Part shown: positions 9,019 through 23,492 of the stretch, piece after piece
Numbering within the stretch: the stretch's first letter is position 1
Layout of the letters: each line of letters starts with the position of its first letter
Origin: a virus
Lineage: Duplodnaviria; Heunggongvirae; Uroviricota; Caudoviricetes
Virus record (IMG/VR): IMGVR_UViG_2617271049_000012
Direction: 5' to 3' (one strand)
Length of the DNA stretch: 42,306 nt
Notes under the pieces: model-generated
The model's input: the letters and a program-made list of their open reading frames with translations, nothing else
Told to the model about the DNA's origin: nothing
The model's database searches: none
Program-made: the position numbers and the translations under genes

Positions 9019-10906
9019 TGCAGCCGGTGCGATAGCAACAGGGCTTGTATCTCTCAATATTCCGGTACCACTGACGACAGTTCAGTGGGCTGATCAGCAT
9101 TATTATCTGCCAAAAGAGTCTTCATATACTCCCGGGCAATGGGAAACACTGCCGTTTCAGGTTGCCATCATGAACAGCATGGGGAATGACCGGATCCGCA
9201 CCGTTAATCTGATTAAATCGGCGCGTGTTGGTTACACCAAAATGCTGTTGGGGGTGGAGGCTTATTTTATTGAACACAAATCCCGTAACAGCCTGCTTTT
9301 TCAGCCGACAGATTCTGCGGCAGAAGATTTTATGAAATCCCATGTCGAACCAACGATAAGAGACGTTCCTGTATTACTGGAGCTGGCTCCGTGGTTTGGC
9401 AGAAAACATCGGGACAACACGCTTACCCTGAAACGTTTCTCCTCCGGTGTGGGATTCTGGTGTCTGGGCGGAGCTGCTGCCAAAAACTACCGTGAAAAAT
9501 CTGTGGATGTGGTCTGCTATGACGAACTCTCCTCGTTTGAACCGGATGTGGAAAAAGAAGGTTCACCAACTCTGCTTGGCGATAAGCGTATCGAAGGTTC
9601 GGTATGGCCTAAATCCATACGCGGCTCAACGCCCAAAATTAAAGGTTTTTGCCAGATTGAAAAAGCCGCGAACGAATCTGCACATTTTATGCGGTTTTAT
9701 GTGCCATGCCCTCATTGTGGTGAAGCCCAGTATCTGAAGTTTGGCGATGATGCGACAACCTTTGGCCTGAAGTGGGAGAAGGGCAAGCCGGAGACGGTGT
9801 ATTACCTGTGTGAACATAATGGCTGCGTGATCCGTCAGTCGGAACTTGACCAGACCGACGGGCGGTGGATTTGTGACAATACCGGGATGTGGACGCGTGA
9901 CGGTCTGACATTTTACAGCGCCGGTGATGAGGAAATCCCGCCACCGCGCTCAATCTCGTACCACATCTGGACGGCATACAGCCCGTTCACCACCTGGGTA
10001 CAGATTGTTTATGACTGGCTTGATGCACTGAAGGATCCGAATGGCGTCAAGACGTTCATTAACACCACGCTGGGGGAGCCTTATGAAGAGGCTGTGGCAG
10101 AAAAACTGAGCTTTGAGTTATTGCTGGAAAAAGTCTGCCACTATGATGCGCAGGTTCCCCTGCGGGTGGTTTACCTGACCGCAGGGATCGACTCTCAGAA
10201 AAACCGTTATGAGATTTATGTCTGGGGCTGGGCTCCTGGCGAAGAAGCTTTTCTGATTGACAAGCAGATCATCATGGGGAGACCGGAAGATGAGGACACC
10301 CTTAAACGCGTTGATGCCGTGATCCGGAAAAAATACCGTCATGCAGATGGCACTGAAATTTCCATTTCCCGCGTCTGCTGGGATACCGGTGGTATTGACC
10401 AGGACATTGTGTATCAGCGATCCAGAAAACACGGCACTTTTTTTGTGCTCCCCATCAAAGGGGCGTCGGTGTACGGCAAGCCGGTGATCACCATGCCAAA
10501 AAAGCGAAACCAGCGTGGGGTGTTTTTGTGTGAGGTGGGTTCCGATACCGTCAAGGAAATGCTGTATGCGCGTTTTGCCCTGCCGGTGGTATCTGCCAGT
10601 GAAGTCGCACCGTATACCTTCCGTTTTCCGGATAACCCGGACATTTTTTCTGATGTTGAAGCTAAACAACTCGTGGCAGAAGAGCTGGTTGAAAAAGTTG
10701 TGAACGGGCGGGTGAAACTCCAGTGGGATGCCAGAAAACGGCGTAATGAAGCTCTGGACTGTCTGGTGTATGCCTATGCAGCGCTGCGCATTTCCGTTCA
10801 GCGGTGGCAACTGGATCTGGATGCACTGGCCCGCGCCAGAAGAGATGAACAGGACGACGATGAAATGACTATTGAAGAAATCGCGGCTGCTCTGAGTGGA
10901 GGATAA
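8990..10906 (+). CDS. A: Terminase large subunit A
   Basis: About 639 aa, colinear with lambda gpA (HYYLPKES...WETLPFQ.AIMN.MG.D.IR.VN..KSARVGY.KMLLGV.AYFIEHK...VACPHCGE.QYLKFGD...). Confidence 0.95.
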
Positions 10907-10909
10907 GTG

Positions 10910-11119
10910 ATGATTTATACGCATGAAATGCTATGCGATGCCCGCCGGGCGTTACATGAACTGATGATCGGACGTGCTGTGGTTTCCGTCAGCAAGGACG
11001 GGCGTCAGGTTCAGTATTCGCGGGCGACAATTGGTGAACTGCGTCAGTATATTGAAGAGCTGGAAAGTGCGCTGGGTGTATCCGGACGGCGTCGTGGCCC
11101 GGCAGGAGTGGGGCTGTGA
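10910..11119 (+). CDS. W: Head-tail joining protein W
   Basis: About 69 aa; similar to lambda gpW (...AR.ALH.LM.G...V.V.KDGR.V.......L..YI.ELE.....RRRGPAG). Confidence 0.8.
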   Translation: MIYTHEMLCDARRALHELMIGRAVVSVSKDGRQVQYSRATIGELRQYIEELESALGVSGRRRGPAGVGL

Positions 11120-11928
11120 ACGGGGAACTGGTGGATATTCATGGGCAGCCTTTACGGCAAGGCATGGGATATTCTGGTGGTGGTTCCGGGTTCGGTGGGC
11201 AAATGGCAGAATGGCTGCCTGCACCGGAAAGTGCCGACGTGGCGCTCTTACCTTCCATTCATCTGGGTAACGCCCGCGCGGATGAGCTGGTCCGTAACAA
11301 CGGTATTGCATCGAATGCAGTGGAAATTCATAAGGATCATATTGTCGGGCACATGTTTCGTCTGAGTTACCGTCCCAACTGGCGCTGGCTGGGGATGTCG
11401 GAAGCAGATTCACATGCTTTTATTGAAGATGTTGAGGCGGCGTGGATGGAATACTGCGATCCGGTGTTTGGTACGATGGATGTGGAAGGGCGTCGTTCGT
11501 TTACCGAATTCATTCGTGAAGGGGTGGGGGTCCATACGTTTAACGGTGAAATTTTTGTCCAGCCCGTATGGGATGCGGAATCCACGTCATTATTCCGGAC
11601 GAAATTCAAAACCATCAGCCCGAAGCGTGTCAGTACACCCGGTTATGGTACCGGCGATCGTTTTATGCGTGCCGGGGTGGAAATAAACCGACACGGAAAA
11701 GCGCTGGCCTACCATGTTCAGGATGATGACTGGCCCGGCTACGGTGTCAGTAAATGGACACGAATTACGGCAACACTGCCTTCCGGACGACCGGGAATGA
11801 TCCATGTGTTTCAGCCACAGGAAGACGGGCAGACCCGCGGGGCCAACCAGTTTTATTCTGTAATGGAGCGTCTCAAGATGCTCGACACACTGCAGGCCAC
11901 GCAACTGCAGTCGGCGGTGGTTCGCGCC
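11116..11928 (+). CDS. B: Portal protein B, 5' portion (about 271 codons); gene interrupted by mobile element insertion
   Basis: Colinear with lambda gpB N-terminal half up to ...TQLQSAVVRA; after the junction the frame runs into 18 unrelated codons and a stop (ORF end 11982). Confidence 0.85.
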
Positions 11929-11930
11929 AT
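11924..11930. repeat. attL core (GCGCCAT), left copy of direct repeat
   Basis: Identical 7-mer at the right junction (22729..22735); flanking bases TTATG versus GTATG. Confidence 0.6.
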
Positions 11931-12059
11931 TTATGTCTATTATCTCCCCGTAGTTGTCGCCACCATTCATCAACTCCACTAAAACCCTTGATATGTCTGG
12001 AATGTCGTTTTTTGTATTTATGATGACCGTTCATTACCTTTCGTGTTTTTCGCGGTTTT

Positions 12060-12112
12060 GTGTATTGCAATGTGTATTGCAAGTTGGCGTTTGGATGGGG
12101 TGTGTATTGCAA
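12060..12112. repeat. Three direct copies of GTGTATTGCAA near attL, upstream of int (candidate arm-type or regulator binding sites)
   Basis: Copies at 12060-12070, 12072-12082 and 12102-12112; related copies near attR (22633..22654). Confidence 0.55.
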
Positions 12113-12131
12113 ATTGACGTGTAGGCTACAT

Positions 12132-13373
12132 ATGGCTATCGAGAATAAACTGACTGACAAACTTCTGAAAAGTCTTGCAGGTAAGCCGCAGGACAGACAA
12201 AAAATCATGGCTGATGGGCGGGGGCTATCTGTTCGTGTAAGCGTGGTTGGGGGAATTAGTTTCGTTTTTTACTATCGTATTGGCGGCAGGGATGCCCCTC
12301 CGGTATGGCTGACCCTTGGGCGTTATCCTGATATGTCTCTGGCAGCCGCCAGGAGATTACGCGACCAGTGCCGTGAATGGCTGGCGGAAAATCTGGATCC
12401 TCGCAGACAAATAAAACTTGTAGCTGAAAAAAACATGCGCCCTGTAACTGTAAGGGATGCGGTGCTTTACTGGTACGATAATCACGCCAGGACAGCCAGA
12501 AAGCAGCATGAGTATTTAATAAAAAGATTTGAAAAGCATATTTTTCCATATATCGGAGATATGGCTATAGAACAGTGCAAATTGCATACCTGGCTTACTG
12601 TATTTGACAGAATTAAAAAAAATGCTCCTGTTATGTCTGGTGCTATTTTTCTTGATATTAAACAGGCGTTACGTTTTTGCCGTATCAGGCAATACATTAG
12701 TTGCGATCCATTCGGTGATATTAACGTTAGTTATGTTGGACGTTCAGCAGGCATAAGGGATCGTGTTCTGAGTATTAATGAAGCCGCTGACGTATGGTCT
12801 TATGCCTATGGCAACAATTTACTTACCCTTTCATCAATACATAACCGAAGAATTATGGTTATCTGCCTGGTGTTTGGTTGCCGTCAGCAGGAGGCGCGGT
12901 TATCCACTTGGGAAGAATGGGATTTAAAAAACTGGATTTGGACAGTTCCAAAAGAGCACAGCAAGAACGGCGAGGTTATTGTAAGACCAGTCCCTGATGG
13001 AATAAAACAATGGGTTATTAATCTTTATGCGGAAACAAAGCACCGGGATTGTGTTATCGGTAGATCACTGAAGCGAGCGACAATAACAGGAGCAGCAAGC
13101 CGGATATGTAGGCGGCTAGGGCATGATGTAAATGGTCTGTGGTGCATACATGATTTCAGGCGTACATTTTCAACAATGCTTAACGATATGGGTGCCGATC
13201 CTTATATTGTAGAGCTTCTGCTTGGTCATAAAGTTAAAGGTGTGGCGGGTGTTTATAATAAAAGCAAGCATGTAAAGAAAAAACTTGAGGTTCTTAATAT
13301 GTGGGTTAATTACCTTAACACGATAGCCGGATTTAATAATAACGTTATTGAACTGAGTAAAGAGGTTGTTTGA
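12132..13373 (+). CDS. int: Tyrosine integrase, P4-type
   Basis: N-terminal P4-integrase-like region (LTDKLLKSL...KIMADGRGLSVRVSVVGGISFVFYYRIGGRD...WLTLGRYPDMSLAAARR) and C-terminal catalytic region (HDFRRTFSTMLNDMG...ELLLGHKV..VAGVYNKS); adjacent to attL. Confidence 0.9.
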   Translation: MAIENKLTDKLLKSLAGKPQDRQKIMADGRGLSVRVSVVGGISFVFYYRIGGRDAPPVWLTLGRYPDMSLAAARRLRDQCREWLAENLDPRRQIKLVAEKNMRPVTVRDAVLYWYDNHARTARKQHEYLIKRFEKHIFPYIGDMAIEQCKLHTWLTVFDRIKKNAPVMSGAIFLDIKQALRFCRIRQYISCDPFGDINVSYVGRSAGIRDRVLSINEAADVWSYAYGNNLLTLSSIHNRRIMVICLVFGCRQQEARLSTWEEWDLKNWIWTVPKEHSKNGEVIVRPVPDGIKQWVINLYAETKHRDCVIGRSLKRATITGAASRICRRLGHDVNGLWCIHDFRRTFSTMLNDMGADPYIVELLLGHKVKGVAGVYNKSKHVKKKLEVLNMWVNYLNTIAGFNNNVIELSKEVV

Positions 13374-13374
13374 T

Positions 13375-13632
13375 ATGTCAGTTTATTCACTTGTTGATGA
13401 AAAAGATTTTACTGCAATGCCGGATATTGATCGTGTCATTCGTGAAAAAGAATGCGTGGCACTTACTACGCTGGCAAATTCAACACGCTGGAAACTGGAA
13501 AAGACAGGTAAGTTCCCAAAACGTATTAAGATTGGTGAACGTGCCGCTGGCTATCGTCTCTCGGAGATTCAGGCGTGGATCCGTGGCGATTGGCACCCAG
13601 GATGGAAACCGGAAAAAACAAAACAGCAATAA
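13375..13632 (+). CDS. alpA: AlpA-family transcriptional regulator/excisionase
   Basis: Small HTH protein with AlpA-like motif (TGKFPKRIKIGERAAGYRLSEIQAWI); overlaps the int stop. Confidence 0.8.
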   Translation: MSVYSLVDEKDFTAMPDIDRVIREKECVALTTLANSTRWKLEKTGKFPKRIKIGERAAGYRLSEIQAWIRGDWHPGWKPEKTKQQ

Positions 13633-13648
13633 CCAGGAGATAAACACA

Positions 13649-13673
13649 GCCCCGCTCAATGCGGGGTTTTTTG
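13649..13673 (+). terminator. Rho-independent terminator
   Basis: CCCCGC-TCAAT-GCGGGG hairpin followed by TTTTTTG. Confidence 0.6.
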
Positions 13674-13691
13674 TATGTGAGGTAAAAAGCG

Positions 13692-14270
13692 ATGAATAAA
13701 AATATTGCCGTGACGGGCAAAGGTGACGCTCGTCTAGTGAAAAAATTCTGTGATATTCGTGATCTGGTCGTTCTGCGCTTTGATGGTGTGAACGTTCGCG
13801 TGGTGTATCTGAACGGCGATCCGTGGTTTGTTGCAGTTGACGTGTGCGCTGCGCTGGAAATTGTTGATCACAAGGTTGCGTTACGCCGTCTCGATGATGA
13901 TGAAAAGGGGGAGTGTTTAATACCCACCCTTGGCGGAAATCAAACAATGCGAACTGTATGCGAGTCAGGTTTCTACAAACTAATAGCCCGTAGCCGCAAA
14001 GCAACGACGCCTGGCACGTTCGCCCATCGTTTCAGTAACTGGGTATTCAGAAATGTGATACCGGGTATCAGAAAAACGGGGGCTTATGGTATCCCGTGGG
14101 GCGCATTACAGGATTTTTCCCGCCGTAAAGAGCAATATCAGATAAGTGCCAGCGAGAAGGGGAGGGAGCTACAGGCATGTAAGCGCAAAAAGCGTGAGCT
14201 GGAGGAAGAAGAAAAAAGGCTGATACGTGAATATCAGCCTGAGTTTTACTTTGGTGAGCGTATTCAGTAA
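13692..14270 (+). CDS. BRO-N domain protein (antirepressor-like)
   Basis: N-terminal Bro-N pattern (LRFDGVNVRVVYLNGDPWFVAVDVCAALEI...ESGFYKLIARSRKA); charged coiled-coil C-terminus. Confidence 0.75.
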   Translation: MNKNIAVTGKGDARLVKKFCDIRDLVVLRFDGVNVRVVYLNGDPWFVAVDVCAALEIVDHKVALRRLDDDEKGECLIPTLGGNQTMRTVCESGFYKLIARSRKATTPGTFAHRFSNWVFRNVIPGIRKTGAYGIPWGALQDFSRRKEQYQISASEKGRELQACKRKKRELEEEEKRLIREYQPEFYFGERIQ

Positions 14271-14552
14271 CCACTCGCAGTGCTGATTATACGGTACATC
14301 GTGTTAACCGGGAAGCTACCCACCAGCAAGGCAAAATCTTCTGCTAAAAAATGATATATGGTCAGCCGTCCGGAAAGCATGAAATTTTACAAAAATGGAA
14401 AATGAAGATTTTTATTGTGCTGGTGGGTAAAAACAAAAAGCGCCCCGTTGCCGGAGCGCCTTTGTGAACAATTAACCTACTGCGCAAAAAATGAATCTGA
14501 GCAGTGGGATTATATCAACCGTGTGACGAAGCGCCACAATTGCCGGATAACA

Positions 14553-14583
14553 GGCAAAACAAAGGCCACCCGCTACGGTGGCC
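14553..14583 (-). terminator. Rho-independent terminator for the minus-strand small-gene pair
   Basis: GGCCACC-CGCTAC-GGTGGCC hairpin with an A run on the + strand upstream (a U run on the minus-strand transcript). Confidence 0.5.
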
Positions 14584-14686
14584 CTTCAACACAAGCTACA
14601 CGTTATCCCCAACGCATGAGCATCACCAACAATGCCACATTTGCGGCTAGTGGGCAATGTGATCAGTGTGCTGGCTTGCTGGTGGG

Positions 14687-14884
14687 CTATTCCTGCTCTT
14701 TAGCATCGCCATGCTGCGATGTTTTCCAGGTATGCGATCCCATTTTTGTGCGCCTGTACTCTTTAAGGAACTTCTCAAGGACAAACGCACATGGTGCGAA
14801 TCTTTCCTGTTCTTGTTCGCTTACCGCGTTTTTGCGTTGTTTTTTCCTGGATGAGGATAATTTCTTTAATGATTTGTCAGTCAT
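14687..14884 (-). CDS. Small basic protein, paralog of the adjacent ribbon-helix-helix-like repressor
   Basis: 65-aa ORF between the RHH gene and a minus-strand terminator; shares ...SEQEQ...F.....FVLE... and the C-terminal AKEQE with 14942..15139. Confidence 0.4.
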   Translation of the reverse strand: MTDKSLKKLSSSRKKQRKNAVSEQEQERFAPCAFVLEKFLKEYRRTKMGSHTWKTSQHGDAKEQE

Positions 14885-14941
14885 CGTAGATACCTGTAAC
14901 CCAGTGCGCCACAGTTCACCGCACCACAGCGCTGGTGATGG

Positions 14942-15139
14942 TTACTCCTGCTCTTTGGCCTTCCGGCGCTGTTCATATTTTAATTTGCGTCCACAGGCAT
15001 CTAAGACCCATGCGGAAAAATTAGCACTAGGATTAGTTAATTTTTCTTGTTCAACACTGGCATCAATCCCATCTATAAGCTCGTGCGGGAATCGAATGTT
15101 TTTCTTTGCTGATTTGTTGTTTGTGTTTCCGCTAGACAT
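14942..15139 (-). CDS. Putative ribbon-helix-helix (Arc/Mnt-like) repressor
   Basis: 65 aa; N-terminal beta-strand-like KNIRFPHELIDGID; GAGGTG RBS 7 nt upstream of ATG; palindromic operators immediately upstream. Confidence 0.5.
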   Translation of the reverse strand: MSSGNTNNKSAKKNIRFPHELIDGIDASVEQEKLTNPSANFSAWVLDACGRKLKYEQRRKAKEQE

Positions 15140-15165
15140 TGGTACACCTCATTTAAATGGATTTG

Positions 15166-15246
15166 ATGGGCGCACACAATACAGCAAAAAAAGTGAGAAG
15201 TTAAGTATTGACATGTGCGCACACATAATTTTAATCTGTGCGCACA
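15166..15246. promoter_or_regulatory. Divergent control region with three palindromic operators TGTGCGCACA (one imperfect) overlapping a TTGACA -35 element
   Basis: Sites at 15168-15178 (GGGCGCACACA, imperfect), 15214-15223 and 15237-15246 (perfect 10-bp palindromes); TTGACA at 15208-15213. Confidence 0.65.
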
Positions 15247-15344
15247 GTTTGGGTTGCATTGCTCAAATTAAGCAACGCCCCGCAGTGCTCGCAACACATG
15301 CAGGGCGTCTAACCACCAACGATAGCAATAGTATCGAGGTAGCT

Positions 15345-15548
15345 ATGTTAAATCATACCACACACCCGCAAGGGCGGGACTCGCACAACCTGAATAAATA
15401 CATCTGGCGTTTTATCGCCCTGAGCACGGCACAGCCGCGCGTGATTACCATTGAGGCCACCAGCGAACAGGAAGCACGCCAGCAATCCCCGGCTGGCTGC
15501 GTGATGGTATTCGCCGCTCGTATTCGTCAGGAGGTGCGCCATGATTAA
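15345..15548 (+). CDS. Small satellite protein, possibly Icd-like (weak recollection only)
   Basis: First + strand ORF downstream of the operator region (MLNHTTHPQ...YIWRFIALSTAQPRVITIEATSEQEARQQ...); lies inside a spurious 377-aa track ORF. Confidence 0.4.
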   Translation: MLNHTTHPQGRDSHNLNKYIWRFIALSTAQPRVITIEATSEQEARQQSPAGCVMVFAARIRQEVRHD

Positions 15549-15753
15549 CCTGTCACTTACCGACCTTAACCGCATTCAGTTTCGTGAGAAATTTACCGGG
15601 CAGCTACTGGTCAATGTGGATAAAGGTCGCGTGGTGTGTAATTACCACCTGCCAGATGAAGCCATTGTCGCAACAAGGGAATCATTACAGGAACTCGCAG
15701 AACGTGCCGGAATGATTAACGCGAATATTCAGGGGGTGAGACATGTGCAATAA
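15541..15753 (+). CDS. Hypothetical small protein (70 aa)
   Basis: ATG overlapping upstream stop (ATGA); part of a tightly packed + strand operon. Confidence 0.45.
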   Translation: MINLSLTDLNRIQFREKFTGQLLVNVDKGRVVCNYHLPDEAIVATRESLQELAERAGMINANIQGVRHVQ

Positions 15754-15982
15754 CCCACGTCCGGACGCAGCCGCCGAAGCCATCAAAACGCTGATGCACG
15801 CGCTGATTGATATTTCATGCACGGCAGCAATCGCAGAAAAATACATTACCAGAGAGACGGAATATACAGGGGAAATAATCCCCCATTCGCTGGCCTACGC
15901 ACAGCTTACCGCTGATATGGCACTGAATGAGGCCAGGGCTATCCTGATTGCTGATTGTGAAAATGGGGGGGGTTATGCGTGA
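15743..15982 (+). CDS. Hypothetical small protein (79 aa)
   Basis: Overlapping-start operon member; no domain recognised. Confidence 0.4.
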   Translation: MCNNPRPDAAAEAIKTLMHALIDISCTAAIAEKYITRETEYTGEIIPHSLAYAQLTADMALNEARAILIADCENGGGYA

Positions 15983-16208
15983 TGATCGTTTTAATGCCCT
16001 GAAACAGGAATTTGATGGCGCACCGGAAGATACAGATATTGCGCTGTTATGTGTTGCTGACATGGTAAAAGCTGCATGTTTTTTACTGGAAACCGCCGAA
16101 CATTCAGGAACGGGTAGCGATATTCTCAATATTGCGTCGGACTATGCGGAATATGTGGCAGAGACGCGTTACAGAAGTAAATTCCCGGAGGGGGTGAGCC
16201 ATGCATGA
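15948..16208 (+). CDS. Hypothetical small acidic protein (start ambiguous: 15948, 15963 or 15975)
   Basis: Operon member; GGGGG RBS-like tract before ATG 15975. Confidence 0.4.
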   Translation: MLIVKMGGVMRDDRFNALKQEFDGAPEDTDIALLCVADMVKAACFLLETAEHSGTGSDILNIASDYAEYVAETRYRSKFPEGVSHA

Positions 16209-16434
16209 TATTTACAATGACACAGTAGACCATGCATACAGCGCACTTGCTTACAGTGAAAACATGCTTGAAATATTGCGCTTATGGCTTGAAACGCTTG
16301 GCGATAATGAAAGAGATAAACGCAACAGCAATATTGCAACAGCATTAATAACGCTTCTTGAGCCTGTAATAAATGAACTGCAAGAAATAGACATCTTGCA
16401 CGACAGATATAAAGAGCCACACACCGGAGAATAA
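16201..16434 (+). CDS. Hypothetical small protein (77 aa)
   Basis: ATG overlapping previous stop; operon member. Confidence 0.4.
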   Translation: MHDIYNDTVDHAYSALAYSENMLEILRLWLETLGDNERDKRNSNIATALITLLEPVINELQEIDILHDRYKEPHTGE

Positions 16435-16439
16435 AAACC

Positions 16440-16739
16440 ATGAAAAAGAAAAATTCTGGCTTTACTGCCAGCGGCCCCGCTCGGCCTGAAATCCGCCCCG
16501 GCGATATTTTCCGGGATAACTACGGCGGCACGGTAACGATTAAAAGTATTGCCGGACGGTGCGTTACTTACCGCCGTGATGGGTACAGCTACGACTGCGT
16601 GATGCCTGTTTATCAGTTCCGGCGTGATTTTTCTCTGGAACAGGCCGCACCACACAAACAGCCCACCAGCAACGCAAAGGCACGGGCGAACATTCAGAAA
16701 ATGAAAAACATGATTAACGCATTCAGGGGTAAAAAATGA
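16440..16739 (+). CDS. Hypothetical small basic protein (99 aa)
   Basis: Operon member directly upstream of rep; stop overlaps the rep start. Confidence 0.4.
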   Translation: MKKKNSGFTASGPARPEIRPGDIFRDNYGGTVTIKSIAGRCVTYRRDGYSYDCVMPVYQFRRDFSLEQAAPHKQPTSNAKARANIQKMKNMINAFRGKK

Positions 16740-18151
16740 AACTGGCACCGAACTTAAAAAAACAGCCGCACGACAAAATGACCGAAGTCATTATTTTTGC
16801 GGGTAGTGATGCCTGGGCGCACGCGAAACAATGGCAGGAGCAGGACGGGCGACTTGCTGGCGACAATGTTCCGCCTGTATGGCTTGGAGACAACCAGCTT
16901 GACGAACTGGCAGACCTGAAAATCATCGATGATGGTCGCTATTGTGTCCGGCTGTACAAGGCAGGCCACATCAAGCCGTCAAATATTAATGCCATCGGGC
17001 AAAAGCTGGCGGCGGCAGGTGTACGGGATGCGAATTATTACCCTGAGGGAATGCACAGCCAGAAGCTGGAGAACTGGCACGACTACCTGCAACGGATCCG
17101 CGAACAGACAGAGCGCGGGGAAATACTTACTGACGAGCAATACAGCCAGCGAAAAACCACGCTACCAATGAGCATTGGATCTGCAGGGTACGACACACAG
17201 CTTGATTATGTCGTTAAGGGCGTGATTCCGGCTAATTCATTGTGCAGCACATACGGCTCGAGCGGTTCCTATAAATCGTTCCTCGCGTGTTCCTGGGCGT
17301 GTCATGTTGCCACGGGTCGCCACTGGGGAGGCCGCAGGGTGGCGCATGGTTCGGTGATGTATGTCGTCGGTGAAGGGGGGATAGGTGTCCCCCGTCGTAT
17401 CAAGGCATGGGAAATCGTTAATGATGAACGGGTGGAAAATCTGTACCTGGTAAACCGCCCGATTTTTCCGGCAGTCCCGCTTGATGTCGATGAAATGGTC
17501 ATCGCTTCCCGCCAGGTTGAACGGGAAACGGGTAAACCGGTACGCATGATTATTCTGGATACGCTGGCGCGTTGCTTTGGCGGTAATGATGAAAATGACG
17601 CGCGGGATATGGGGGCGTTTATCCGTGGATGTGACGAACTGAAACGACGCACAGGGGCCACGGTGCTGGTGGTTCACCATTCCGGCAAGGATGAAACAAA
17701 GGGGGCGCGTGGTTCCAGTGCATTTCGTGCATCTCTGGACGCTGAATACCGTATTCGCCGTGAAGGTGCGGACAGTGAAGCCCTGGTTATCTCCTGCACC
17801 AAAATGAAGGACGCGGAGGAACTGAAAGAGGCTGCATATGATTTACGCGTGGTGGAGCTTTTTACCGACACTGACGGGGAGTTAATCACGTCGCTGGTGG
17901 TTGTGGATAAGCCGCGCCCACCTGTTGAACTGGAGCGCATCGAGGAGGCCGGGAACAAGACGGAGAATCATGCCGCGCTATGGCAGTGCATCAGAACGCG
18001 AACAGCACACGGGGAGGCGTGCACTATCGCCCTTCTCCGCGACGATATGAAAAAGCTGGGGTATGAAATGAAAAACTTCCGGCGCTGGCTGTACAAGCTG
18101 GAAAGCGACGGCGTAATCGCTATTGACGGTGATTATGTGCGCCCACTGTAA
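16736..18151 (+). CDS. Replication initiator/helicase (RepA-like RecA-fold ATPase with N-terminal extension)
   Basis: Walker A-like YGSSGSYKSF and Walker B-like RMIILDTLARCFGG; iteron array immediately downstream. Confidence 0.7.
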   Translation: MKLAPNLKKQPHDKMTEVIIFAGSDAWAHAKQWQEQDGRLAGDNVPPVWLGDNQLDELADLKIIDDGRYCVRLYKAGHIKPSNINAIGQKLAAAGVRDANYYPEGMHSQKLENWHDYLQRIREQTERGEILTDEQYSQRKTTLPMSIGSAGYDTQLDYVVKGVIPANSLCSTYGSSGSYKSFLACSWACHVATGRHWGGRRVAHGSVMYVVGEGGIGVPRRIKAWEIVNDERVENLYLVNRPIFPAVPLDVDEMVIASRQVERETGKPVRMIILDTLARCFGGNDENDARDMGAFIRGCDELKRRTGATVLVVHHSGKDETKGARGSSAFRASLDAEYRIRREGADSEALVISCTKMKDAEELKEAAYDLRVVELFTDTDGELITSLVVVDKPRPPVELERIEEAGNKTENHAALWQCIRTRTAHGEACTIALLRDDMKKLGYEMKNFRRWLYKLESDGVIAIDGDYVRPL

Positions 18152-18353
18152 AAAGTGAGGAGCAAAAGTGAGGATAGCGGGTAATTTAACAAAAAATCAG
18201 CGCTACTCCTCACTTTCTCACCTGTATATAGGTCAAAAAGTGAGGAATAAAAAATACATTGCAAAACAACGCATTACAGAAGAAAAAAAACAGGTGAGGA
18301 GCAGGACGGGAATAACAAAAAGTGAGGAATAAAAGTGAGTAGAGGTGAGGAAT
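18150..18353. repeat. Iteron array (about 8 copies of AAAGTGAGGA in both orientations): putative satellite replication origin
   Basis: Copies at about 18153, 18165, 18207 (inverted), 18236, 18291, 18318, 18331 and 18343, within AT-rich DNA 3' of rep. Confidence 0.7.
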
Positions 18354-18603
18354 GACCAGAAAAACCAGAGATAAGACAGCACCAAAATATCGCGCATTAG
18401 ACATGACAGAGCACGCCTTAAAGGTGGCAATCAGAACAATAGACCGCCATGCCGGAGAAGGATACGCAAAAGCACATCCAGAACTGATACGCGCATTCAT
18501 GACCACAGCGGCGGCAAACTTTGCCACGCTGACAGAACGGGAGATTGCCGAAGCGGAACAGGTGACAACCATCAACGTTAAAAACGGAGAGCATACAGCA
18601 TGA
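18352..18603 (+). CDS. Hypothetical protein (83 aa)
   Basis: ATG right after the iterons; stop overlaps the ssb start. Confidence 0.4.
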   Translation: MTRKTRDKTAPKYRALDMTEHALKVAIRTIDRHAGEGYAKAHPELIRAFMTTAAANFATLTEREIAEAEQVTTINVKNGEHTA

Positions 18604-19022
18604 CAGCACAGATAGCGGCTTACGGGCGGCTGGTGGCTGACCCGCAGTTAAAGACCACCAGCAAAGGGACACAAATGGCGATGGCGAGTATGGCGGTTCC
18701 CCTTCCGTGCAGCCAGGCAGATGACGGAACGGCGACGATGTGGTTATCCGTCCTGGCGTTTGGCAGGCAGGCCGACGCACTGGCAAAGCACCACAAAGGC
18801 GAACTGGTGAGCGTGGCGGGTAACATGCAGGTAAGCCAGTGGACAGGCCAGAACGGCGAAACGCGGCAGGGCTGGCAGGTTATCGCAGACAGCGTAATCA
18901 GTGCCAGAACGGCGCGACCGGGCGGCAAAAAAGGCCAGCAGGGCCAGGCTACTGACGCACTGAACAGGGCAAAACAACAGGCGGGAAATGATGATCCGTA
19001 CGGGGATAACATACCGTTTTAA
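18600..19022 (+). CDS. ssb: Single-stranded DNA-binding protein (SSB-like)
   Basis: OB-fold-like core, Gly/Gln-rich linker and acidic C-terminal tip (DDPYGDNIPF) resembling the SSB DDDIPF tail. Confidence 0.7.
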   Translation: MTAQIAAYGRLVADPQLKTTSKGTQMAMASMAVPLPCSQADDGTATMWLSVLAFGRQADALAKHHKGELVSVAGNMQVSQWTGQNGETRQGWQVIADSVISARTARPGGKKGQQGQATDALNRAKQQAGNDDPYGDNIPF

Positions 19023-19035
19023 GCAACGAGTGACA

Positions 19036-19063
19036 GAAGCCGGGATTTTTCCCGGCTTTTTTG
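19036..19063 (+). terminator. Rho-independent terminator after ssb
   Basis: AGCCGGG-ATTTTT-CCCGGCT followed by TTTTTTG; a second hairpin (19076-19100) with an upstream A run could terminate minus-strand transcription. Confidence 0.6.
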
Positions 19064-19196
19064 TGCGCAAAAAAAATCCCCCGGGATGAGGTTCCGGGGG
19101 ATTTCACGCCGCTAACGTGATTAGCGCTGAATGACTCTGTGGTACAAGGAGTAAAACCACGGCATCATGATTTCATGATTTGCAACAACAGTCAAT

Positions 19197-19219
19197 ATCA
19201 TTGCAAAAAATGCAATGAT
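19197..19219. promoter_or_regulatory. Perfect palindrome ATCATTGCA-AAAAA-TGCAATGAT upstream of the satellite capsid operon (candidate activator/operator site)
   Basis: 9-bp inverted arms around a 5-bp A spacer; shares the ATTGCAA core with the repeats at both island ends; preceded by direct repeats CATGATTT. Confidence 0.5.
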
Positions 19220-19280
19220 GATTAAAATCATGAATGACTTTTCGTTATGTTTATTTTTTAGTCAAAGAGGAATCTCATTT

Positions 19281-19487
19281 ATGGGAACACAGAAGCCGGG
19301 CGGTGTATCCGTGTACATCAGCCCCGATATTATCGCCGCACTTAATGCGCGCTTTGAGGAGAACGCAGAGGCAGGAAAAAAAATCGGCCTTGATCCGTTG
19401 TGCCTGGTGAAGCCGTCAGTCGGCTGGATGGTACGCAGCCATTTACGCGCTGCGCTTGGTATGAATCAGCCTCATGGGGGTGAGTAA
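19281..19487 (+). CDS. Hypothetical small protein preceding the capsid gene
   Basis: ATG with AAGAGGAA RBS; stop overlaps the capsid ATG (TAATG). Confidence 0.4.
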   Translation: MGTQKPGGVSVYISPDIIAALNARFEENAEAGKKIGLDPLCLVKPSVGWMVRSHLRAALGMNQPHGGE

Positions 19488-20542
19488 TGACAGCGCCGCA
19501 ACTGGTAAGCACACCAACGCTACTGAAAAATATCGGGCGCGAAGATGTGCCGGAATTTAAATTTAATCCACTCTTTACTACGTTGTTCTTTCCGAACGTC
19601 GCTACTTTCAGCACCAGAGATATTGCACTTGATACGCTGGATATTGAAAACGTGGTCATGAGTCCGTTTTGTTCTCCAATGTCAGGCAGCCAGGTTATGC
19701 GTGACAAAGGTTTCACAACGAACACGTTCACGCCGGGTTATATGAAGCCCAAACACGTTATTGATCCCACCAAAACAATCATGCGCATGCCTGGAGAACA
19801 GATCGGCAATGGTCAGTCTTCCCCGGCACTACGCCGCGTAAAAATGGTTCACGACAGCCAGAAAAAACAGCTTGCTGCCATCAAAGCGCGTGTTGAATGG
19901 CTGGCGGTCAATGCCATCACAACAGGCCGTAACGTTATTGAGGGCGAAGGCATTGAGCGTTATGAAATTGACTGGGGATTACCCGAAACCAATCATATTA
20001 CGCAGGCTGGCGGGAAAGAATGGTCAAAACAGGATGCCGAAACGTTTGATCCGATAAGCGACATTGAGGCTTACGCTGATTTTTCCGAAGGTACGGTAAA
20101 TATTATCGTCATAGGTGGCGAAGCCTGGCGTATTTTGCGCTCGTTCCGTCGATTCCGCGAACTAATGGACACGCGTCGCGGTTCAAACTCGTCACTTGAA
20201 CTTGCGCTAAAAGATTTGGGCGGCGTTGTCAGCTTCAAGGGGTATCTCGGTGATGTGGCGATCGTGGTTTATTCCGGTCGTTATGACGACGAAAACGGGC
20301 AGCAGCAATATTTCCTGAAACAAAACATGATGGTTTTCGGCAATACCGAAAATAAAGGCCTTGTTGCTTATGGTGCCATCATGGATCAGGACGCGGCACG
20401 CGAGGGATTTTCTGAGGGGATGTACTACCCGAAAAATTATATCGTACCGGGCGATCCGGCGATTGAATACGTGCAGACGCACAGCGCCCCGCAGCCAGTA
20501 CCCGTGGATATTGGTCGCTTTGTTACCGTCGAAGTGAAATAA
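19487..20542 (+). CDS. Major capsid protein, lambda gpE-like (satellite-encoded paralog)
   Basis: 351 aa colinear with lambda gpE (F.F.PLF...FF.....PGY.KPKH...NITQAGG.EWSK.D..TFDP..D.EAY......NII...WR.LRSF..F.E..DTRRGSNS.LE.A.KDLG..VS.KGY.GDVAIVVYSGRY...). Diverged from the host-phage E at 25544..26572. Confidence 0.9.
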   Translation: MTAPQLVSTPTLLKNIGREDVPEFKFNPLFTTLFFPNVATFSTRDIALDTLDIENVVMSPFCSPMSGSQVMRDKGFTTNTFTPGYMKPKHVIDPTKTIMRMPGEQIGNGQSSPALRRVKMVHDSQKKQLAAIKARVEWLAVNAITTGRNVIEGEGIERYEIDWGLPETNHITQAGGKEWSKQDAETFDPISDIEAYADFSEGTVNIIVIGGEAWRILRSFRRFRELMDTRRGSNSSLELALKDLGGVVSFKGYLGDVAIVVYSGRYDDENGQQQYFLKQNMMVFGNTENKGLVAYGAIMDQDAAREGFSEGMYYPKNYIVPGDPAIEYVQTHSAPQPVPVDIGRFVTVEVK

Positions 20543-20552
20543 AGGGGATCGT

Positions 20553-20882
20553 ATGCCAACACCTTACACGCAATTCCTTTCCGGCACGCAGGAACTGGTC
20601 AGCACGCTGGCCTGTTTTGCCAGTGCCGGAGAAATTAAAGCGAGAACTCCGCTGATGCAGAACGGCGCGGGCCTGATGGTTGAGTGGGACGGTACACCCG
20701 GTAAGGCGGTGTATCTGACCATATCGGACATTAACACGGCCACAAAAAACCGCGCACAGGTTTATAAGTGCGGGGTTTTTAATATCGATGAAATTAACTG
20801 GCCTGATACAGCGGACACGTTCGAGAAAAAAGTGTCGGCTTTTGTTGGTTCCGGTATTTCCGTGCAGCCTTTAGGGCAATAA
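20553..20882 (+). CDS. Head decoration protein, lambda gpD-like (satellite-encoded)
   Basis: 109 aa; gpD-like motifs (TPLM......WDGT.G.AV.......YK.G.F....WPD.A.....AF.G..IS) directly after the capsid gene. Confidence 0.65.
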   Translation: MPTPYTQFLSGTQELVSTLACFASAGEIKARTPLMQNGAGLMVEWDGTPGKAVYLTISDINTATKNRAQVYKCGVFNIDEINWPDTADTFEKKVSAFVGSGISVQPLGQ

Positions 20883-20896
20883 TTTTGTGGTGATTT

Positions 20897-21322
20897 ATGA
20901 CTGAGAAAGCAAATTCAACCAGAGCATTGATCATGGCACTGCCTGAGGCGCAGAAATACCCGACGCTTGCGGAAAATCTCGCAAATAATGGCGCATCACT
21001 GACAGAAGCCCGAACGGTGCTTACTGCAAAGGCTGAGAGTGATAAACAGCGCATAGAGGGTATCAAGGCGTTACCGCTGGCATCAAAATACCCTGAGTTC
21101 ACCAGTAAGCTGATTGAGTGTGGTTCTGAAGTAATGACAGTAACCTATGCACAAACGTTACTGGCTGCCGTGGATGCCCAGGCAATGATGCAGGAAAAGA
21201 AAACGGCTTTTCTGTTTGAAGCGTACATGGAAAAGCACAGCCCGAAATGTGTTGGGCCAGCAGCCGGTGATGGCAACGCCGGACTGACCGAAGATGAAAA
21301 GCTGTTGCTGTCTGTTAAGTAA
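20897..21322 (+). CDS. Putative scaffold protein (Nu3-like) with ALPEA/ALPLA repeat motifs
   Basis: Two repeats (ALPEAQKYPTLAENLANNGASLTEARTVL / ALPLASKYPEFTSKLIECGSEVMTVTYAQTLLAAVD) resembling the ALPEAKGREQLA..LAEQPGMTVEQAKTLLAAAP repeats in the host-phage C/Nu3. Confidence 0.5.
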   Translation: MTEKANSTRALIMALPEAQKYPTLAENLANNGASLTEARTVLTAKAESDKQRIEGIKALPLASKYPEFTSKLIECGSEVMTVTYAQTLLAAVDAQAMMQEKKTAFLFEAYMEKHSPKCVGPAAGDGNAGLTEDEKLLLSVK

Positions 21323-21336
21323 CTGAAATGAACGTT

Positions 21337-21368
21337 CGCGAGGCTGGCAAGGTCTCGCGATTTTTTTT
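21337..21368 (+). terminator. Rho-independent terminator
   Basis: TCGCGAG-loop-CTCGCGA followed by TTTTTTTT. Confidence 0.6.
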
Positions 21369-21394
21369 GTATCCGGAACGGTGGTGATCGCCCC

Positions 21395-21480
21395 AATTTT
21401 CACGGGTCCTTTCCAGAATCAGAAACACCGCGGGGCGGCAGACGCGCAAAAACGCGCTATTTATGAAAATTTTTCAGGAA
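21395..21480 (+). other. Satellite cos site (cosQ/cosN-like) mimicking the host-phage cos
   Basis: CACGGGTCCTTTCC...CGCGGGGCGGCAGACGCGC...CGCTATTTATGAAAATTTTTCAGG parallels the host cos at 8250..8330; directly upstream of the satellite terS. Confidence 0.75.
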
Positions 21481-21620
21481 AAAGCATGTCGGTACTTCTC
21501 GCGCATAACTGTTTGTTTTTATTAAAATCAACCACCAGGAACATACGACATCATAAAGCCCAAAAATCCTGTTTTTTTGGCGTTTCATGTCGGAACTGGT
21601 TTTTGATAAGGAATTGATAG

Positions 21621-22223
21621 ATGAATGTTAATAAAAATAATCTTGCGAAGATTTTTGGCGTCGATCCGCGCACGATTGAACGATGGCAAACGCAAGGGCT
21701 TCCCCATGTATCTGGTGGGGGTAAAGGTGTGGAGGTGACTTTCGACTCTGCGCAGGTGATCGAATGGTATGCACAGAGGGAGAAGGACATCGAAAACGAA
21801 AAACTCCGCAGGGAACTTGATGATTTACGTGCCGATGGTGAATCAGATTTACAGCCAGGCACAACAGAATACGAACGCTATCGCCTCACCAAAGCACAGG
21901 CGGACGGGCAGGAGCTAAAGAACACCAAGGAGACAGGGGAAGTTATCGATACTGAGTTCGTGCTCTATGCGCTTCGTGGGCTGGCGAGCCAGATTTCTTC
22001 GATCATGGATAGTTTACCGCTCACAATGCAAAGGCAGTTCCCCGCGATGACTCAGACAATGATCGAGGGACTGAGGAAGGAAACAGCACGGGCCTGTAAT
22101 GCGTGCGCTAAAACTGCCGATAACCTGCCCCGCATTCTGGAAGACTACCTGATGGAAACAACCGGAAACGTGCCGGAGAAATTACGGCAACAGAAAGGTG
22201 AGTGGCAGCCGCGCAATTATTGA
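21621..22223 (+). CDS. Terminase small subunit, Nu1-like (satellite-encoded paralog)
   Basis: N-terminal region near-colinear with the host Nu1 ([79 protein letters not shown]); C-terminal part diverged and longer (200 aa). Confidence 0.85.
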   Translation: MNVNKNNLAKIFGVDPRTIERWQTQGLPHVSGGGKGVEVTFDSAQVIEWYAQREKDIENEKLRRELDDLRADGESDLQPGTTEYERYRLTKAQADGQELKNTKETGEVIDTEFVLYALRGLASQISSIMDSLPLTMQRQFPAMTQTMIEGLRKETARACNACAKTADNLPRILEDYLMETTGNVPEKLRQQKGEWQPRNY

Positions 22224-22233
22224 ACAAAACTGA

Positions 22234-22296
22234 GAAAGGATCTGATAACGTCATTTTTGGCCCAAAATGACCACTGTCAGATCCTTTCTTTTTTTG
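22234..22296 (+). terminator. Long-stem terminator after the satellite terS
   Basis: AGAAAGGATCTGA...TCAGATCCTTTCT inverted repeat followed by TTTTTTT. Confidence 0.55.
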
Positions 22297-22470
22297 ATGA
22301 TTTTACCATTAAACAATGAGTTACAGAGAAGAAGAACGGATCTGACTTTTCCCGAAAAATTTTCATAAACAGTTAAGAATTGCGCGTATGGCTACCCCCG
22401 GTGTTTTATTTTCCAGGAAGGACCCGCCACAATTACGGCATTGTTTTCCATCACCACGGAGGCCATGACA

Positions 22471-22656
22471 ATGACCGAAGCCGAAATGCTCAAAATGATT
22501 CGCCGCGTTACCGGATCCAGCAAGACAGCAGGCAAACAGGAGACCACGCAGCCGGACAGCGTGATAGCCGAAAATTACGCGCGTGTGGTGGCTGAGGTGA
22601 TGCGCCGTGACGGTATTCACAAGCAACAATTTGCGTATTGCAATGTGTATTGCTAA
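22471..22656 (+). CDS. Hypothetical small protein at the right end of the island
   Basis: GGAGG RBS 9 nt upstream of ATG 22471; 3' end runs through the GTATTGCAA repeats near attR. Confidence 0.3.
   Translation: MTEAEMLKMIRRVTGSSKTAGKQETTQPDSVIAENYARVVAEVMRRDGIHKQQFAYCNVYC
22633..22654. repeat. Two direct copies of (G/T)CGTATTGCAA / GTGTATTGC near attR
   Basis: Same motif and orientation as the three copies near attL. Confidence 0.55.
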
Positions 22657-22728
22657 CCCTCCAAACGGGTGAAATATGCAAACATAACATATTGTTTTGT
22701 CTTTTTATTTTTTCGTATCTTTTCATAA

Positions 22729-22735
22729 GCGCCAT
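22729..22735. repeat. attR core (GCGCCAT), right copy of direct repeat
   Basis: Identical to 11924..11930; its last base pair is the first base of the portal codon ATG (M) that resumes the reading frame. Confidence 0.6.
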
Positions 22736-23492
22736 GTATGCCGCCACGATTGAATCCACACTGGATTCGGAAAAAGCGTTTGAATATATCGCCGGGGTGG
22801 GAGATGGAGGTAAAAATCCCCTGAACACCATCATGAAAGGCTACGCGCGTTATTACGCCACCAATACGGTAAAACTGGGAGGGGTCCGTATTCCGCATCT
22901 TTACCCGGGAGATTCACTGAATCTGCAGACAGCCCAGAATGCGGATAATGGTTTTTCTGAACTGGAAAAGGCGCTGTTACGTTACATTGCTGCCGGACTG
23001 GGTGTGTCGTATGAGCAGCTTTCCCGGGATTATTCACAGGTCAGTTATTCCAGTGCCAGGGCATCCGCCAATGAGTCGTGGCGGTATTTTATGGGAAAAC
23101 GAAAATTTGTGGCCAGTCGCCTGGCGTCACAGATGTTTGCCTGCTGGCTGGAGGAAGCCCTTATTCGTGGTGTGATCCGTCCGCCGAAATCCCGTTTCTC
23201 ATTCTGGGAGGCCCGTTCCGGGTGGTGCCGTGCCGAGTGGATTGGTGCCGGTCGTATGGCGATTGATGGCCTTAAGGAAGTGCAGGAAGCGGTGATGCGC
23301 ATTGAAGGCGGCCTGAGTACATACGAGAAAGAGCTGGCCCTGATGGGGGATGACTATCAGGAGATTTTCCGCCAGCAGCTACGGGAAACTCAGGAGCGAC
23401 AGGCTGCCGGTCTTCCGCGTCCGGTCTGGATAAAGGACGCGTTTCAACAGCAGATCCGACAGACAACGGGAGAAAAAGGCGATGCGCTGTAA
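22734..23492 (+). CDS. B: Portal protein B, 3' portion (about 252 codons)
   Basis: MYAATIES...DSLNLQTAQ..DNG.S..E..LLRYIAAGLGVSYEQLSR.Y.Q.SYS.ARASANESW.YFMG.RKFVAS...WIG.GRMAIDGLKEVQEAVM.IE.GLSTYEKE colinear with the lambda gpB C-terminal half; joins in frame to 11928. Confidence 0.85.
   Translation: MYAATIESTLDSEKAFEYIAGVGDGGKNPLNTIMKGYARYYATNTVKLGGVRIPHLYPGDSLNLQTAQNADNGFSELEKALLRYIAAGLGVSYEQLSRDYSQVSYSSARASANESWRYFMGKRKFVASRLASQMFACWLEEALIRGVIRPPKSRFSFWEARSGWCRAEWIGAGRMAIDGLKEVQEAVMRIEGGLSTYEKELALMGDDYQEIFRQQLRETQERQAAGLPRPVWIKDAFQQQIRQTTGEKGDAL

Follow-up and report, generated by a model that had tools for sequence, protein, structure and literature searches.

Helper-embedded phage-inducible chromosomal islands (HE-PICIs) were described by Tommasini, Mageeney and Williams (NAR Genom Bioinform, 2023; PMC10111431) as PICIs whose integrase clade targets 14 prophage late-gene sites, lambda-B-type portal genes among them, and whose attP sites carry a doubled motif, tgTGTATTGCantgTGTATTGCa, on either side of their centre, at distances of about 81 bp (upstream) and about 132 bp (downstream). 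The second system that bears closely on the present locus is the prototype Gram-negative PICI, EcCICFT073 of Escherichia coli, in which c1499 was named as a capsid homolog and c1500 as a head-decoration homolog (Fillol-Salom et al., 2018, PMC6092414; see also Fillol-Salom et al., 2019, PMC6739421). Here we analyzed an element of about 10.8 kb that interrupts the portal gene of a lambdoid prophage in IMG/VR virus record IMGVR_UViG_2617271049_000012, a stretch of 42,306 nucleotides that we refer to as the window. An earlier reading of the letters alone (hereafter the sequence-only reading) had taken the element for a satellite whose repertoire of head genes was unlike that of the known satellite families. 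We found instead that it is very probably a classical Gram-negative PICI of the EcCICFT073 type, embedded in the portal gene of its own helper prophage, and that, as judged from its attachment sites and gene content, it is an already catalogued helper-embedded PICI, whose gene set is the usual one in its family and does not define a new kind of satellite.

The open reading frames (ORFs) of the window include a lambdoid late operon on the plus strand, which runs from Nu1 (8470-9018) through the large terminase (TerL)/gpA (8987-10906) and gpW (10907-11119) into a portal ORF that stops early, at 11982, and is followed by about 10.8 kb of foreign genes. The portal remainder begins at 22736, and 3′ of it lie the gpC protease/scaffold gene (23482-25098), gpD, gpE and the tail genes through J. 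G+C content is 48.2% within the insert and 52.1% in the rest of the window, which contains no tRNA gene. The boundaries are marked by the following features:

11116-11930, plus strand: 5′ part of the helper portal gene (lambda B type, split by the satellite), in frame once joined to 22736-23492
22736-23492, plus strand: 3′ part of the helper portal gene, joined to the 5′ part
11924-11930, plus strand: attL core GCGCCAT, an identical 7-mer to that at attR
22729-22735, plus strand: attR core GCGCCAT, with flanks equal to the attR printed in the catalogue
12059-12081, plus strand: doubled arm-type motif TGTGTATTGCAATGTGTATTGCA (attP right arm), starting 132 bp after the centre of the attL core
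22632-22653, plus strand: near-copy of the doubled arm-type motif (attP left arm), ending about 79 bp before the centre of the attR core

Removal of 11931-22735 restored an in-frame portal protein of 523 aa that matched Pfam Phage_portal_2 end to end (7.9e-95), giving an element of 10,805 bp (10,812 bp if one core copy is counted). The integrase target lies at codon ~241 of the Phage_portal_2 profile, or about codon 272 of the 523-aa portal, and the satellite splits this gene without bringing a replacement. The doubled TGTATTGC arm motif was present in both attP arms at the published spacing, with a third half-site at 12101-12110, and all main satellite genes lie on the plus strand, in the same orientation as the helper late operon. 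Both the attL region (11880-12029) and the attR region (22680-22800) agreed letter for letter with those printed for Eco10760.11, Eco13983.11 and Eco8720.11 in group B_Phage_portal_2_241, the entries of which come from E. coli and have the identity block gcgccat and a size of ~10.82 kb (Tommasini et al., 2023, PMC10111431 and its supplement). We infer membership of the HE-PICI integrase clade because identical att sites and an identical integrase occur in other portal-embedded copies.

The internal organization is also that of a classical PICI: within 10,805 bp, int stands at the left end reading inward with alpA adjacent to it, rep is followed immediately 3′ by an origin of replication (ori), tail and lysis genes are absent, and cosQ-cosN-cosB are related to the cos of the lambdoid helper. 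The four zones follow one another in the order int/alpA, Bro, replication and late. The order that the sequence-only reading had compared with PICIs (int-alpA-bro-rep-ori-late) was thus borne out, as were its coordinates and its calls of int, AlpA, Bro-N, RepA with iterons, a single-stranded DNA-binding protein (SSB), the E-, D- and Nu3-like proteins, cos and a Nu1-like small terminase (TerS), which we checked with Pfam and PHROG profiles, BLAST and PDB sequences. Full-length matches to lambda-type head and packaging proteins were obtained for E, D and Nu1, and the Nu3-like protein matched only the C-terminal domain of gpC. The late zone opens with the head module:

19281-19487, plus strand: 68-aa protein 5′ of the capsid gene (phrog_3255), 63% identical to its EcCICFT073 counterpart and 100% to that of the related locus L001
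19487-20542, plus strand: E-like major capsid protein of a satellite lineage (Pfam Phage_cap_E, 3.4e-46)
20553-20882, plus strand: gpD-like head decoration protein (Pfam HDPD, the lambda gpD family, 8.7e-8; phrog_49, 1.4e-18; PDB gpD 1C5E, 5e-9)
20897-21322, plus strand: Nu3-like scaffold-domain protein, 141 aa, with two gpC-type 46-aa repeats and the gpC C-terminal tail
21336-21368, plus strand: terminator-like hairpin followed by T8, 3′ of the head module

This is the block that had seemed without parallel, and comparison with EcCICFT073 (sequence taken from NC_004431.1) showed that it is not. The late block of EcCICFT073 has the same order, namely a 68-aa protein (63% identity), the 351-aa capsid protein c1499 (64%), the decoration protein c1500 (49%) and a 137-aa Nu3-like protein (30%), followed by cos; the 68-aa protein preceded the capsid gene in the PICIs that we compared. 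With the same late block in EcCICFT073, and with the junctions of the element printed in the supplement to PMC10111431, the claim of a repertoire unlike the known families could not be upheld.

The presence in the element of its own capsid, decoration and scaffold-like genes was nevertheless real, with profile or BLAST matches of 3.4e-46, 8.7e-8 and 3e-11, respectively. The Phage_cap_E match of the E-like protein spans profile positions 14-328 of 329, and among PDB sequences the protein is closer to 3BQW (1.6e-151), a 351-aa “putative capsid protein of prophage” that is 64% identical to it and provides a crystal structure of a homolog, than to lambda gpE (7VI9, 2.8e-89). It is likewise 64% identical to c1499 of CFT073, as against 45.6% to the helper E protein, and no match above 46.6% identity was found in 50,697 phage genome records. 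The decoration protein is 49% identical to c1500 and 40.5% to helper D. For the 141-aa protein there was no Pfam match and no sequence relative in the PDB, and we know of no Nu3 structure with which it could be compared; we assign it to the gpC scaffold (Nu3-equivalent) domain because it aligns with the C-terminal end of phrog_53 (protease/scaffold, 1.4e-8), matches residues 409-535 of helper gpC in BLASTP (35.6% identity, E = 3e-11) and shares the 46-aa repeats.

The repeats deserve a remark of their own. In helper gpC (538 aa), a 138-nt (46-aa) unit, IMALPEAKGREQLA...MTVEQAKTLLAAAP, occurs in 3.6 tandem copies at window positions 24465-24965, after the S49 protease domain and before the C-terminal tail; as the satellite protein has two, the scaffold-like domain is the more expanded one in the helper. 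Not every element has the third gene of the head block, because another portal-embedded PICI, L003, carries in the Nu3-like slot (13164-13547) an unrelated gene, annotated as a helix-turn-helix regulator and with 16% identity.

The sequence-only reading had called the head genes diverged paralogs of the host prophage genes, and identities of 45.6% (E), 40.5% (D), 35.6% (C/Nu3) and 57.4% (Nu1) agree with this. The ratio of nonsynonymous to synonymous substitution rates (dN/dS), estimated from L001, L002, L003 and L010 only, with L004-L009 and L011 left out, came to 0.06-0.07 (E), 0.13-0.16 (D) and 0.17 (terS), and all satellite ORFs were intact; on these grounds we rejected a decaying remnant. 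Given the 36-46% identity to the helper, the 64% identity of E to a distant PICI, phage matches of at most 46.6% and the low dN/dS, we conclude from these alignments that the head module represents a long-established satellite lineage, kept under purifying selection, and that it was not captured recently from the helper. Gene order differs as well, being E-D-Nu3 in the satellite, with the scaffold last and no protease, and C-D-E in the helper. At 90% nucleotide identity or more, this allele of the E-D-Nu3 block was present in 21 genomes.

To the right of the head module lie the packaging site, the small terminase gene and a short right-end gene:

21400-21610, plus strand: cos, aligned to the helper cos, with cosQ GGGTCCTTTCC (about 21404), cosN GGGGCGGCAGACGCGC (21433-21448) and cosB with R3 ATGTCGGTACTTCTCG and R2/R1-like sites
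21621-22223, plus strand: Nu1-like small terminase (TerS), 200 aa (Pfam Phage_Nu1, 7.4e-68, positions 1-162 of 164)
22471-22656, plus strand: right-end gene, 61 aa (phrog_1561), its 3′ end overlapping the arm motif

Satellite cos is collinear and gap-free with the helper cos at about 8245-8470, upstream of Nu1. The two have in common cosQ GGGTCCTT, cosN GGGGCGGCAG, the CTATTTATGAAAATTTTTC segment, R3 TGTCGGTACTTCTCG and the R2/R1-like CGACAT/CATGTCGGA, and the R3/R2/R1-like cosB sites share a TGTCGG core with the helper. The satellite TerS matches the N-terminal structure of lambda TerS (PDB 6HN7, 1e-37) and is 57.4% identical to helper Nu1, with a nearly unchanged helix-turn-helix and a strongly different C-terminal third. 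In lambda Nu1, the C-terminal third is the region that binds TerL. The satellite C-terminus resembles instead that of Nu1 from phage PhiR5_1 (67% identity). Among PICI TerS proteins, the C-terminal half or third (motif DYLMETxGNVPxKL) is conserved even where the N-terminal DNA-binding domain is unrelated, as in L003 (13749-14291), which suggests that it may serve as a satellite-specific partner-binding domain.

Up to and including cosQ and cosN, siblings with an identical integrase show almost no differences from the window; the divergence begins exactly after ...GCGCTATTTATG, and identity returns at ~22380. The divergent segment (21477-22380 in the window, 19400-20330 in L004) holds a lambda-type cosB and the Nu1-like TerS in the window, and an unrelated cosB and a 146-aa Rpp-like protein in the siblings. 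This protein shares 83% identity with the 144-aa protein that EcCICFT073 carries in the Rpp position; published RppA has 144 residues, and RppB is ~83% identical to it. The arrangement typical of Rpp-type redirection, in which an rpp gene lies downstream of a cos with a non-helper cosB, is therefore not that of the window, where the slot is taken by the Nu1-like TerS. BLASTP showed no similarity between the satellite TerS and the 146-aa protein, and we do not claim that the two cassette genes are homologous. On these alignments, cosB and terS form a discrete, swappable cassette that is replaced in the siblings by an alternative cosB (cosB′) and rpp. Both cassette types also occur at tRNA-Pro, and the exact TerS allele is rare, being found in about 6 contigs, all with the same portal-embedded context. 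The 61-aa right-end protein appeared by eye to be homologous to the 93-aa right-end protein of EcCICFT073. The last codons of its gene (…AYCNVYC) are the arm-type integrase motif, and the attP arm therefore overlaps and shortens this ORF (61 versus 93 aa).

The left and middle zones are occupied by integration, regulatory and replication genes:

12132-13373, plus strand: tyrosine integrase, 413 aa (Pfam Arm-DNA-bind_3, 1e-18, and Phage_integrase, 5.7e-14; phrog_1)
13375-13632, plus strand: AlpA (excisionase/regulator), 85 aa (Pfam Phage_AlpA, 3.8e-15), gene call taken from sibling loci
13692-14270, plus strand: Bro-N domain protein, anti-repressor-like (Pfam Bro-N, 5.8e-16; phrog_2593, 1.2e-78)
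14687-15139, minus strand: two divergent 65-aa genes, 14687-14884 and 14942-15139 (phrog_21027 and phrog_949), the second of the Pfam DUF3950 / YlcI-YnfO-like type
15345-15548, plus strand: repressor-like protein, 67 aa (phrog_6196 “transcriptional repressor”, 7e-56), gene call taken from L014
15541-16739, plus strand: operon of five small genes from uncharacterised PHROG families, the last being DUF4222 (Pfam, 4e-24)
16736-18151, plus strand: RepA-family helicase, replication initiator (Pfam AAA_25, 5e-44; phrog_2850, 2e-248)
18150-18331, plus strand: probable ori with four iterons, AAAAAGTGAGGA(G/A)(C/T)A, repeated directly 3′ of repA
from 18352, plus strand: 83-aa protein (phrog_1231)
18600-19022, plus strand: SSB (Pfam SSB, 4e-16)

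An ori 3′ of the rep gene is the arrangement described for PICIs. Of the “repressor with operators” proposed in the sequence-only reading, only the 67-aa ORF at 15345-15548, with its match to phrog_6196, stands. A longer, 377-aa ORF on the plus strand (14415-15548) was rejected as an open-frame artefact, as it overlaps the two minus-strand genes and has a family match in its last ~67-90 codons only. Between 14270 and 15340, strong terminator-like hairpins on the minus strand (14436-14463 and 14561-14586) lie downstream of the divergent genes. The remaining small ORFs matched regulators or uncharacterised families only in the PHROG and Pfam scans. An Rfam scan returned no family at gathering score, and no C4/isrK-type immunity RNA was seen in the Bro zone at E ≤ 0.1.

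When the element was searched by tblastn with all helper late proteins, only Nu1, E and the scaffold portion of C had matches; TerL, the portal, the protease domain and the tail proteins FII-J had no match in the element by tblastn, Pfam or PHROG. The earlier statement that portal, protease, TerL and tails are lacking is thus sound. A megablast against the phage collection gave no match to the whole element, and we conclude from this that it corresponds to no deposited phage.

From the published HE-PICI induction experiment and the biology of lambda packaging, we infer the following life cycle. On induction of the helper, the composite would be excised and would replicate, and helper late (Q-antiterminated) transcription from Nu1-A-W-B′ would read into the co-oriented satellite. 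Int and AlpA would then excise the satellite, and only at this point would a functional portal gene be restored. The satellite would replicate from its own RepA/iteron ori, its TerS would bind satellite cosB and recruit helper TerL (gpA) to cut cosN, and DNA would be packaged from cos to cos into heads that would need the helper portal, protease, head completion proteins and tails. By analogy with EcCICFT073, such heads would most likely be of helper size, with room for about four copies of the genome (4 x 10.8 = 43 kb). For another HE-PICI, induction led to composite excision, then replication, then satellite excision (Tommasini et al., 2023, PMC10111431).

Several points weigh against this account of the element. 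In the same study, virions of the one HE-PICI helper tested were not recovered (PMC10111431), and we found no experiments in the literature on this element or on any Nu1-TerS-type E. coli PICI. Because the TerS C-terminus is divergent and PhiR5_1-like, its pairing with the TerL of this helper is not assured, and the gpA N-terminus of PhiR5_1 differs from that of helper gpA. The part played by the E/D/Nu3-like trio is also a matter of guesswork: we would guess that this conserved accessory module assembles together with the helper head proteins on the helper portal, or supplements them. That the trio is essential for transfer is unlikely.

The alternative that fares best, although we consider it improbable, is that on the helper portal the satellite assembles shells of its own, probably smaller ones, out of its E-, D- and Nu3-like proteins, as a “semi-capsid-forming” PICI with size redirection like that by Ccm of SaPIbov5 or Sid of P4, which would make it an intermediate between classical and capsid-forming PICIs. 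The complete shell-forming set (capsid, scaffold-like protein and cement) is kept as one conserved block under strong purifying selection, and its capsid lineage is distinct from all phage capsid proteins in the 50,697 records. The tail of the Nu3-like protein resembles the C-terminal tail of helper gpC, making recruitment of the helper protease plausible, and PmCI172, which carries a capsid homolog, makes small capsids; by scaling arithmetic, 10.8 kb would fit a lambda-scaled T=3 head once or a T=4 head twice. However, EcCICFT073 has the homologous block, and there the packaged DNA was all of phage size, deletion of c1499 or c1500 changed neither transfer nor interference with lambda (Fillol-Salom et al., 2018, PMC6092414), and a derivative with a cat insertion in c1499 was still transferred at 1e5 per ml. 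In addition, classical E. coli PICIs are packaged in large capsids according to the paper on capsid-forming PICIs (bioRxiv 10.1101/2022.09.08.507074). The building or remodelling of capsids by the satellite, which the sequence-only reading had favoured, is accordingly possible but is disfavoured by the EcCICFT073 data. A broader version, in which the trio would form satellite-specific shells on a helper portal that excision makes available, these elements would be a “half-way” class of capsid-forming PICIs, and cosB+terS and cosB′+rpp would be two interchangeable ways of capturing TerL, struck us as decidedly unlikely.

The head module could alternatively be anti-phage cargo whose E-like and Nu3-like proteins, as decoy or poison subunits, would upset the assembly of capsids by the helper or by unrelated lambdoid phages, although we give this little credence. 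It would account for a module that is conserved yet dispensable for transfer in EcCICFT073, 45% identity to helper E is close enough for co-assembly, and interference functions are common in satellites. Against this, loss of c1499 or c1500 did not relieve the interference of EcCICFT073 with lambda, which was later assigned to Rpp, and direct evidence points to no target phage. Finally, that the head genes and terS were captured recently from the helper in which the element sits, possibly as decaying passengers, is very improbable: Tommasini et al. (PMC10111431) document helper late-gene clusters captured into PICI late zones, as for elongated PICIs, and suggest that embedded satellites capture neighbouring genes, but here identity to the helper is only 36-57%, against 64% (E) and 49% (D) to a distant PICI, E reaches at most 46.6% with any phage record, all ORFs are intact with dN/dS of 0.06-0.2, and the gene order differs from that of the helper.

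Relatives of the element are widespread. Some part of it was matched in 1,998 of the 5,426 complete E. coli genomes, and the identical 413-aa integrase occurred in 188 collection blocks, mostly inside portal genes. Related loci sit in prophages (L001, L003) or at tRNA-Pro (L010, L011). At L009 (CP057879.1, 3692345-3713586), the same element, with the identical integrase, lies outside any portal gene, at a chromosomal site beside a 65-aa Sel_put-family gene and with an ahpC/ahpF-dsbC-like cluster several kb upstream; the same genome has a portal-embedded copy (L008). L009 probably reflects off-target integration, which has been reported for HE-PICIs. At L001 (NZ_CP049201.1, 2852899-2873862), a head module 99.7-100% identical to that of the window accompanies a different integrase within another prophage, flanked by two hypothetical genes after the head-tail joining gene and, on the other side, by two more short hypothetical ORFs and then P2-like baseplate genes. 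This position may be a further target site in a prophage late region.

Identifying the element as an EcCICFT073-type, portal-embedded PICI removes a false lead, since a “partial head” set is the norm for E. coli-type PICIs. What remains of interest is the conserved head module and the exchange of terS and rpp cassettes. The former has been a puzzle since 2018, as the module is under strong purifying selection, yet its deletion had no phenotype in the one system tested. The latter, a swap of terS for rpp between elements that are otherwise identical, is a natural contrast in which two ways of hijacking a lambda-type terminase can be cleanly compared.

Set beside the known satellites, the element resembles the P4-like group in its small size, cos packaging by the helper terminase, an AlpA-like regulator and Bro-network genes. 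It differs in lacking homologs of Sid, Psu, Delta and the alpha primase/helicase, for which no ORF had a PHROG or Pfam match, in having a lambda-type and not a P2-type cos and helper, and in head genes that are paralogs of E, D and Nu3. With the staphylococcal pathogenicity islands (SaPIs) there are functional analogies: in pac SaPIs of the SaPI1/SaPIbov1 type, a satellite small terminase recruits helper TerL, and SaPIbov5 Ccm is a satellite-encoded capsid paralog, for which size redirection has been demonstrated, whereas such a role of the E-like protein would be conjectural. SaPIs have no sequence relationship to the element, are Gram-positive and, where they bear a TerS, package by headful, and no homologs of their Ppi or CpmAB were seen in the element. 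The capsid-forming PICIs (EcCIEDL933; Alqurainy et al., 2023; bioRxiv 10.1101/2022.09.08.507074) share the int/alpA/rep backbone and have capsid and small-terminase genes of their own. Their repertoire extends further, to a portal, head maturation protease, head-tail connectors, HNH and TerL, and hence they need only helper tails, while tblastn, PHROG and Pfam detected none of these genes in the element. EcCICFT073 is the closest relative that has been studied experimentally. Besides the late block, it shares with the element int-alpA, a replication module followed by its ori, cosQ/cosN of the lambda type and a homologous gene at the right end. It is integrated in the chromosome, outside its helper, with a different integrase and att site, whereas the element sits within its helper; after cosN, EcCICFT073 has a non-lambda cosB and a 144-aa Rpp that reprograms helper TerS, and the element a lambda-type cosB and a full Nu1-like TerS. 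From the HE-PICIs of group B:Phage_portal_2:241 (~10,825 bp, against 10,812 bp for the element with one core copy), we found no structural difference, cassette type aside, and the element shares with them attL and attR, the gcgccat block, a size of ~10.8 kb, the arm motif and its spacing, the orientation and the four-zone order.

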